Shown piece by piece: positions 33,805-34,782 of a stretch of 64,000 nucleotides of DNA. A program made the position numbers and the translations under genes. The stretch is from Verrucomicrobiia bacterium. Lineage in GTDB: Bacteria; Verrucomicrobiota; Verrucomicrobiia; JADLBR01; JAIBCM01. The notes under the pieces are model-generated. The model did no database searches and had not been told where the DNA came from. It saw only the letters and a program-made list of their open reading frames with translations. The stretch is taken from NCBI GenBank assembly GCA_041395165.1, contig JAWLBA010000001.1, positions 136,068 through 200,067 of the forward strand, written 5' to 3'. Position 1 is the first letter of the stretch. Each line of letters opens with the position of its first letter.

Positions 33805-34782
33805 ATGGAAGAAGAAGAACAGATTGAACAAACGGAAGAGTCCAGTGAAGAAACTCAAGAATTTGGTGATCAAGAACAATCTGTTCAAGACGAACCCACT
33901 GAAGAAATTGAGCCAGTTGATTAGACTCAAAACGAAGCTGTTGGAAATGTCATAGACCCAAGCCAAGCTCTTAATCGGGTTGAGGCTTCTGATTTAGAAA
34001 AAGCGGAAACAGCTCCTACTGATGTAAATCAAAATTCAAATTCCCATTTTTCCTTGGGTGCTACAAAATCTAAATCTCCTTTTTCCTTCAAAGGAGATGG
34101 CATTGATGAAGCCAGAGAAGAGTATAATGATACTGTTCAGAGAGCTAGGGGTGACTATCACGATTTGTCTAAAGAAGTGGGCGATTTTTCAAAAAAAATC
34201 GATAGTTTATCCGAGACGAGAGAGAGTCAAAGAGATTCAGCTCATGAAGAAGAGCCTGATGCTCCAGAGCAAACTGAAACCACACCAGTAGAACCAGCAA
34301 TGATCCAAGAACGTCCTGGAGAATGGGAGCATGTACAAACTAAAGATGGAAAAAATAGGGCGTTTGTTGGAAATTATAGAGATCCTCAAGATCCTAACGC
34401 GCCAAAATTAGGTAATTGGGATTTAAATATTCCTGGAATGAAAGTTCAAGCCAGAAGCAATGACTATAAAAACGACATGGAATTAATTTGGGAACAGGCT
34501 GCTTTGCCAACTACTTCAAATACGCCACCTGCACCAGCAAAGATAATTAAATCCGAATGTGTTGTGCAAGAAACAGATAAAACTTCCAAAATAAGTTGTG
34601 TTTTCCCAAAACCCGATAAAAATTTAGATAATATTAAGTTAGGTTACACTCACTTTTTATCGGTAGATATTAAAAATGAAGCGGGTGGCAGAACTCGTAT
34701 GGATGTCATTTGGGATAAAGCGGCATCATCTGCTCCACAGAATGCTAATCCAGCTCCCAATGTCGCTCCGGTTGTTCATTAA
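33805..34782 (+). pseudogene. acidic protein P3, reading frame interrupted by an in-frame TAG (33922-33924)
   Basis: The MEEEEQIEQ start resembles P1/P2. The frame continues after the TAG into the 34054-34782 ORF (KSPFSFKG...). The only downstream start is a TTG with no visible RBS. Confidence 0.5.

Follow-up and report, generated by a model that had tools for sequence, protein, structure and literature searches.

The window, by which we mean the whole 64,000-nucleotide stretch of DNA that was analysed, contains two loci of interest, both flanked by housekeeping genes (mutL, parB, fab genes, nagA, hpnH, tol-pal, tatC and alaS among them). The first, at 32.8–36.6 kb, comprises four genes on the forward strand, P1 to P4; the second, at 56–64 kb, holds the genes grouped as family A. 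A short tryptophan-containing motif, here called the W-box, occurs twice in P3. The features of the first locus are:

32787..33327, + strand: P1; open reading frame 32787–33272, probably continuing in another frame to 33327
33331..33786, + strand: P2, a paralogue of P1 (BLAST P1–P2, E 1.6e-9)
33805..34782, + strand: ancestral frame of P3, 326 codons including the stop, from translation
34054..34782, + strand: annotated form of P3, R3F23_00870 (NCBI annotation of the source MAG; 242 aa, TTG start; 100% match to P0001)
34468..34503, + strand: W-box copy 1 of P3, internal (KNDMELIWEQAA), with M, I, W, A and A invariant in four orthologues
34504..34542, + strand: P/T/A-rich linker after copy 1 (LPTTSNTPPAPAK), pLDDT below 50 at residues 148–161
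34690..34725, + strand: W-box copy 2 of P3 (RTRMDVIWDKAA), from pattern search and orthologue alignment
34726..34779, + strand: C-terminal P/A/S/N/Q-rich tail of P3, 18 residues, kept in composition and variable in sequence among orthologues
35049..36587, + strand: P4, a 512-aa orphan with a Pro-rich C-terminus ending VLVP, with synteny in loci L001, L002 and L013

The frame 33805–34782, given for P3 in the first-pass annotation, has the correct extent of the ancestral gene, but the copy in the window is interrupted by an in-frame TAG at 33922–33924. In a tblastn search the closest orthologue, P0002, aligns across the TAG and has Gln at that codon. The P3 orthologues are 304–320 aa long and their alignments span the stop position, which shows that the ancestral gene had been delimited correctly. 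The mechanical ORF, 34054–34782, is identical to the NCBI annotation. Judged from the sequence, the P3 copy in the window may be a pseudogene owing to the TAG. Assembly error is a serious alternative, because one other gene in the same window is split and another looks frameshifted. The essential alanyl-tRNA synthetase gene alaS (16114–18854, − strand) is split into two overlapping frames that meet near 18340–18350 at the run ggg-aaaaa-g, with positions 1–142 of the Pfam domain tRNA-synt_2c in one frame and 150–551 in the other; this split indicates a single-nucleotide homopolymer indel, and thus an assembly that carries indel errors. P1 is probably frameshifted as well, by a single-nucleotide indel in a G-run near 33264. 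In the stretch 33255–33327 its alternative frame reads on as ..WGVGPEPIPADLLKPGVTKVQGF, and this end resembles the ends of P1 and P2 orthologues (..IGVTNPEP.., ..VTVSGGF, ..IKISGSF and ..IGVTNPEPQQPKPGSIIP).

P3 is acidic, as first described, with a pI of 4.45 and 20% Asp plus Glu. Its predicted layout is a helix, an acidic disordered stretch and two beta-rich segments (AF2, mean pLDDT 51). P1, P2 and P3 have in common an acidic MEE(E)..Q start and a K[NS]P[LF]SF box, and a P4-type orphan always adjoins P1–P3 (loci L001, L002 and L013).

Translation places both copies of the motif in P3, the internal ..SNDYKNDMELIWEQAALPTTSNTPPAPA.. and the terminal ..GGRTRMDVIWDKAASSAPQNANPAPNVAPVVH, where they had been reported. 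A search of all six frames of the window with the strict pattern M[DE].IW[DE].AA gives exactly two matches, at 34477 and 34699, and P3 contains both. The same pattern with its tail had also been attributed to two proteins at 56–59 kb. The quoted sequences, NMEGIWKAAANGSPAP in A3 and NMTDVWAAAGGNTPS in A2, are indeed present, but the strict form is restricted to P3. Relaxed forms of the motif add A3 and A2 only, and the loosest, five-residue form adds one unrelated match.

How much of P3 is repeated? Two tandem modules, each ending in the motif, had been proposed. When the two conserved segments are aligned with each other by hhalign, only 22 columns are recovered, corresponding to the W-box and tail, with an E-value of 1e-7. 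When the motif is removed, the segments give Smith-Waterman z-scores of −1.4 to 0.66 across all four orthologues. A tandem domain duplication is therefore rejected: the repeat is a 22-residue motif with its tail, beyond which no homology is detectable, and the equal number of strands, five, in the two segments comes solely from a low-confidence AF2 model. The DNA encoding the motif copies has diverged at synonymous sites, which rules out recent gene conversion between them and indicates that their likeness is maintained at the protein level. Conservation among P3 orthologues is not confined to the motif; it extends over the entire C-terminal 145 residues.

The corresponding features of family A all lie at or near the C-terminus:

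56602..56676, + strand: A1 (56020–56679), divergent W-box RLSGSIWNRVTI and tail ending KP; the L009 orthologue keeps SGSVWDRVTIP
57439..57537, + strand: A2 (56758–57540), W-box RERNMTDVWAAAGG and 19-residue tail, kept in orthologues P0012 and P0013
58492..58584, + strand: A3 (58084–58587), W-box RGNMEGIWKAAANG and 17-residue tail, closest to the P3 copies; orthologue P0006
62048..62173, + strand: A4 (61091–62176), divergent W-box RANVEAAWKALD and 30-residue tail ending SP, conserved in P0007–P0009
63049..63141, + strand: A5 (62338–63144), divergent W-box ATAAVWQAVEAG and 19-residue tail; the L006 orthologue has ASVWKVAEG

By sequence comparison, family A is not one alignable family. BLAST links only A1 with A4 and A2 with A3, and the best local alignment between A4-type and A2/A3-type profiles is the W-box only. 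P3 and A1–A5 have no homology beyond the motif: BLAST E-values are 0.16 or higher and the matches are confined to it. The tagged proteins thus fall into at least five unalignable groups, namely {A1, A4}, {A2, A3}, A5, a set of extra members, and P3. The family-A proteins have a helical, Ala-rich body and an Ala/Arg-rich amphipathic N-terminus; P3 is acidic at its N-terminus and contains beta-rich segments. The main argument for an autonomous unit is that the W-box and tail are what unites at least five groups that are unrelated in other respects.

Anchored on the Trp, 23 copies of the motif have Met at −4 in 12 cases, Ile, Val or Ala at −1, and Ala, Leu or Val at +3 in every case; a basic residue at −7 is frequent. 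Of the 19 C-terminal copies, 16 have the Trp 18–25 residues from the end of the protein, and in the remaining three, all of them A4, the distance is 33–35 residues. The four internal copies, from P3, are followed by a linker of approximately 13 residues and then the second segment.

We asked if the resemblance between P3 and family A is specific. A 24-column HMMER model of the motif did not place the family-A copies among its top matches, and an ungapped PSSM was used instead. This matrix was trained on the eight P3 copies alone (four orthologues, two copies each) and applied to approximately 41,000–52,000 positions. Its best non-self matches are A3 (16.5–17.6 bits) and A2 (12.1 bits), at equal distances from their respective C-termini; the next match scores 6.8 bits. 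When residues were shuffled, the A3 score was reached in 1.3–2.7% of trials and the second-best score in 0.7%. The reverse scan, from a family-A PSSM to P3, ranks copy 2 of P3 first or second, with p-values of 0.27 and 0.055 that do not reach significance across the window. Alignment of P3 with the A2/A3 profile using hhalign gives the W-box and tail as the best local match (23 columns, E 0.038, probability 1.35%).

Two composition rules were also applied. Rule 1 calls for [IVLA]W within the last 45 residues, followed by a tail of 8–35 residues with at least 70% P/A/S/T/N/Q/G. Applied to the 185 stop-terminated frames of 100 aa or more from the window and related loci, it picks only family A and P3 orthologues; the C-terminal copy of P3, A2, A3, A4 and A5 pass, and A1, with its W-box 18 residues from the end, is not picked. 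Rule 2 combines [IVA]W..[ALV] ending 14–31 residues from the C-terminus with at least 70% P/A/S/T/N/Q/G in the last 15 residues. In 165 frames outside both families, the W-box of this rule is found in none, the tail in four and both together in none. None of the unrelated proteins in the approximately 110 kb of DNA inspected from this clade carries the motif. The link drawn earlier between P3 and the 56–64 kb family is thus specific within this DNA, and orthologues on either side of it keep the motif. Taken together, the sequence comparisons argue for a link that goes beyond chance, though its statistical support is moderate and not overwhelming.

A further resemblance had been seen between the motif and a [FL]DW box in P1 and P2. 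The box exists in the text of both proteins but is not a W-box: the P3-trained PSSM does not match it, and the paralogy of P1 and P2 (E 1.6e-9) explains its presence in the two.

P3 has three homologues among 5.8 billion proteins, with 56–70% identity. All three keep both copies of the motif, with M, I, W, A and A invariant. One orthologue was found for A3, two for A2 (one at 47% identity, ending NLEGIWAAAEG) and three for A4 (46–51% and 91% identity, all with RANVEAAWK). Overall, the motif of P3, A1, A2, A4 and A5 is kept in three further lineages at 46–70% identity. In the sister MAG GCA_019694135.1 both loci are on a single contig, in the same order as in the window. In a third lineage, represented by Logan sample SRR27422817, a P3 orthologue is present and family-A genes lie beside hpnH, together with additional members ending PSVWDLAEKG.. 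and ASVWKVAEG... Two MAGs and a few short assemblies are all that is known of the clade. GTDB representative genomes and JGI metagenomes yielded no relatives of P3 or A4. Scans of P1–P4 and A1–A5 against Pfam, NCBIfam, PHROGs and PADLOC gave nothing above noise, PDB sequence searches with P4 and with the P3, A2/A3 and A4 profiles gave no match, and a literature search found nothing relevant. By these searches P3 and family A are orphans, with three to four relatives each among billions of proteins. Since both gene sets are confined to one tiny clade, their co-occurrence is uninformative.

The 56–64 kb cluster also contains sequences that appear to lack the motif. At 57813–57947 is a decayed family-A remnant with an internal stop, from which the W-box-coding stretch appears to be deleted; its counterpart in the sister MAG is intact (L005 9199–9879, 226 aa, ending ..PSVWELAAGERR..). 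A sixth Ala-rich helical protein of the cluster, at 63248–64000, is cut off by the end of the window. The orthologue in the sister MAG (L005 14227–15126, 299 aa) ends ..NSGWGM, with neither W-box nor tail, indicating that not all members of the cluster are tagged.

Structure models of P3 and A2 were obtained with AF2. The P3 model has a mean pLDDT of 51, with 55–68 in the beta-rich segments. Each segment (residues 91–147 and 169–221) is modelled with five strands; the final strands hold DMELIWEQ and RMDVIWDKA, and a disordered linker or tail follows. The A2 model has a mean pLDDT of 64, with 75–89 in an N-terminal helical bundle, and NMTDVWAAA is at the end of a low-confidence helix (residues 197–238) that leads into a disordered tail. 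The W-box itself has a local pLDDT of about 50–68 in these models. Foldseek comparison of both models with the PDB gave no match at E ≤ 0.001; what it listed were helical bundles and beta proteins of a generic kind. The hydrophobic moment of the W-box favours neither helix nor strand; the conserved positions −4, −1, 0, +3 and +4 are compatible with helical spacing. Kyte-Doolittle windows of 1.6 or above are absent from P3, A1, A2, A4 and A5, and A3 alone has a hydrophobic N-terminal segment (residues 11–30). Inspection of the N-terminal sequences revealed no signal peptides: P1–P3 begin with the acidic MEEE..Q sequence and the family-A proteins with an Ala/Arg amphipathic stretch. In the second segment of P3, C169 and C182 (34558–34560 and 34597–34599) are invariant in 4/4 orthologues and lie on adjacent strands in the low-confidence model. 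A disulfide between them would hint at an extracytoplasmic P3, though one without a visible export signal.

We propose that the repeated unit could be a bipartite peptide tag, composed of a W-box of approximately 12 residues and a hydrophilic tail. The W-box has the consensus [RK]-x-x-M-[DET]-x-[IV]-W-x-x-A-[AG], or in looser form [small]-[IVA]-W-x-x-[ALV]; the tail comprises 18–25 residues, is probably disordered, is rich in P/A/S/T/N/Q and often ends in Pro. The unit is found at the C-terminus of at least five unalignable, clade-specific groups; P3, one of these, has two copies, a terminal one and an internal one whose tail forms a linker. It may act as a docking or targeting peptide: a common partner, either a protein or a surface, would offer a pocket for the invariant Trp and the small hydrophobic +3 residue, with the tail as a flexible spacer. 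P3, having two tags and N-terminal features in common with P1 and P2, could be a bivalent adaptor that brings the proteins of the 32.8–36.6 kb locus to the site of family A. We tentatively favour this reading, an autonomous docking or targeting tag read by one partner, with P3 bridging the two gene sets. Besides the exclusivity, spacing, conservation and autonomy of the motif and the forward PSSM result, two observations speak for it: the tails are disordered in the AF2 models of P3 and A2, and the two loci keep their synteny in the sister MAG and both occur in SRR27422817. The sequence comparisons show the motif, its specificity in the inspected DNA, its distance from the C-terminus, its conservation and its autonomy; that it binds anything, that one partner serves all the proteins and where these reside is inferred. 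Against it, no partner, common regulator or known domain was found for these genes, the reverse PSSM scan yields p-values of 0.27 and 0.055, and the hhalign probability is 1.35%. The models place the W-box in a strand in P3 but at the end of a helix in A2, which, if real, argues against a single bound conformation. The idea of one function common to both loci, already put forward in the first-pass annotation, is plausible, and we infer it from the tag alone. The proteins are assigned by default to the cytoplasm or the membrane periphery, as no signal peptides were seen.

Could the W-box instead be purely structural? It would then be the last secondary-structure element of each fold, followed by an ordinary low-complexity tail, and the likeness between groups would be convergent, with no common partner. 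The positions of the W-boxes in the AF2 models, in the final strand of each P3 segment and at the helix end in A2, are those expected on this account, which also agrees with the conservation of the whole C-terminal 145 residues of P3 beyond the motif and with the reverse PSSM scan, which is not significant. However, both models have low confidence in the W-box regions. Moreover, convergence would have to yield Met at −4, Ile or Val at −1, Trp, Ala at +3, a basic residue at −7, the distance from the C-terminus and the tail in five unalignable groups, while 0 of the 165 other frames have a W-box at that position. We consider a purely structural role doubtful.

The W-box and tail could also have been spread as a cassette, by recombination or duplication at the 3′ ends of genes and by internal duplication in P3, and persist by descent with no present role. 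A history of this kind would account for the 22-residue unit being the only part repeated inside P3 and the only part that aligns between groups. The families also appear to be in flux, with tandem paralogues, the decayed copy at 57813–57947 and a gene order in L002 and L013 that differs from the window. It is less easily reconciled with core residues that are invariant down to 46% identity while the tails drift, a pattern that indicates purifying selection on the W-box itself. The divergence at synonymous sites implies that any such event is old and that the motif has been maintained since. Persistence by descent with no present role is unlikely. Chance, meaning Ala/Pro-rich C-termini with a single Trp noticed post hoc, is disfavoured and very improbable: the shared core is short, the family-A PSSM does not single out P3 significantly and the hhalign probability is 1.35%, but the forward PSSM gives shuffle p-values of 0.007–0.027, its two best non-self matches are both family-A C-termini at equal distance from the end, 0 of 165 control frames satisfy rule 2, and the motif is present in all orthologues on both sides.

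Returning to the docking or targeting tag, we compared it with known systems. Among the closest are the C-terminal sorting tags of the exosortase, sortase and rhombosortase type, PEP-CTERM, LPXTG and GlyGly-CTERM, where a short motif likewise lies close to the C-terminal end of numerous proteins that are otherwise unrelated and are often lineage-specific paralogues. Verrucomicrobia commonly have PEP-CTERM. These signals are tripartite, with a motif, a hydrophobic TM helix and a basic cluster, and their proteins have N-terminal signal peptides; the W-box is followed by a hydrophilic tail, has no PEP, LPXTG or GG signature and has one copy that is internal. Identity with them was rejected, as there is no TM-like window after the motif, no NCBIfam match at E ≤ 0.1 and no signal peptide seen.

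Cargo peptides of bacterial compartments offer a second comparison. The Pdu, Eut and CcmN peptides and encapsulin CLPs are autonomous peptides of approximately 10–20 residues that are joined to unrelated cargo via a Pro/Ala/Ser-rich flexible segment, are terminal or between domains, and dock on one common shell protein. In BMC and encapsulin cargo the linker is between cargo and peptide, whereas in the W-box tag the flexible part is distal, at the C-terminus. The W-box also differs in having no GSL-type box. Its conserved positions fit helical spacing, its hydrophobic moment does not favour a helix, and the models give, at low pLDDT, a strand in P3 and a helix in A2. No BMC or encapsulin shell genes were seen in the approximately 110 kb inspected (window and related loci).

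Type I and Dot/Icm type IVB secretion signals occupy the last 20–60 residues, are rich in small and polar residues, and are found on acidic proteins without N-terminal signal peptides and on many unrelated substrates. The tagged proteins differ from these in having no RTX repeats and no E-block, and it would be unusual for such a signal to lie mid-protein, as copy 1 does in P3. The inspected DNA yielded neither ABC/MFP exporter genes nor type IV genes, and the sole two-cassette ABC protein nearby is of the ABC-F type. A type I substrate was rejected, with no Gly-rich nonapeptide (RTX) repeats visible and no exporter genes in the window or sister loci. The CTD of type IX secretion, a beta-sandwich of 80–100 residues (TIGR04183), was rejected too, given no Pfam or NCBIfam match and a conserved unit of approximately 12 residues plus tail. 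A phage or defence-system origin was rejected after PHROGs and PADLOC scans gave nothing above noise. More generally, the window and related loci yielded no genes for secretion, compartment shells, phage functions or defence. Upstream of the genes we found no shared regulatory element, only AT-rich words and ordinary TTGACA −35 boxes. The likeness to compartment cargo peptides or to uncleaved secretion signals is one of functional analogy only.

The W-box and tail would be a tag, probably a new one, borne by orphan proteins of a rare clade. If the W-box does serve for recognition, it marks out a functional set among proteins otherwise devoid of homologues, domains or fold matches, and it gives a simple means of tracing the partner they have in common. 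More than once the discovery of a C-terminal sorting or docking signal has opened the way to a new machinery, as with exosortases, type IX secretion and compartment cargo loading, and a dedicated receptor reading the W-box and tail would constitute a new sorting system in Verrucomicrobia. A more specific scheme, in which the tag is a clade-restricted targeting signal whose dedicated receptor recruits or exports at least seven unrelated orphans to one structure, with P3 as a two-tag adaptor, is speculative and on balance unlikely. The significance is limited by the rarity of the clade, by the inspected DNA, in which no machinery was found, and by the purely sequence-based nature of the analysis.

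Two kinds of gene could be put forward, speculatively, as the receptor. Upstream of P1 a tRNA-Glu(UUC) gene (31544–31618) is followed by a gene at 31634–31966 for a 110-aa protein with three TPRs, which is conserved at the same position in the sister MAG (L001 7881–8213). Small TPR proteins often bind terminal peptides, and this one is a conjectural candidate for the tag receptor. The other candidates, on similarly conjectural grounds, are the orphans P4 and P4b. P4b, at 2834–4522, is a 562-aa orphan paralogous to P4 (28% identity, E 2e-52). In locus L002 a gene with 49% identity to P4b lies directly upstream of P1–P3. The C-terminus of P4b has a Pro-rich tail with a final Pro (..VVVDPFTAKPALVP), as in P4.

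Directly upstream of P1–P3 are three paralogues with signal-peptide-like N-termini, at 27785–28927, 30294–31415 and 31986–32735. They share an N-terminal block, ..YTQNFD.LG..W.NN.TLPGW.Y.., and the 373-aa and 249-aa members match by BLAST with an E-value of 1e-58. The sister MAG has four copies, and none matches Pfam or NCBIfam. Just upstream of the family-A cluster, between a trypsin-like protease gene and nagA, lies a 142-aa ORF (54256–54684, − strand), which, judging from its sequence, may encode an IS200/IS605-type (Y1) transposase; at this position the sister MAG has an unrelated 108-aa gene. Finally, a C-terminal Pro is over-represented in the window and loci L001–L013, where 23 of the 191 frames with 100 or more residues end in it; about 16 of these 23 are family A, P3, P4/P4b or P1 orthologues.
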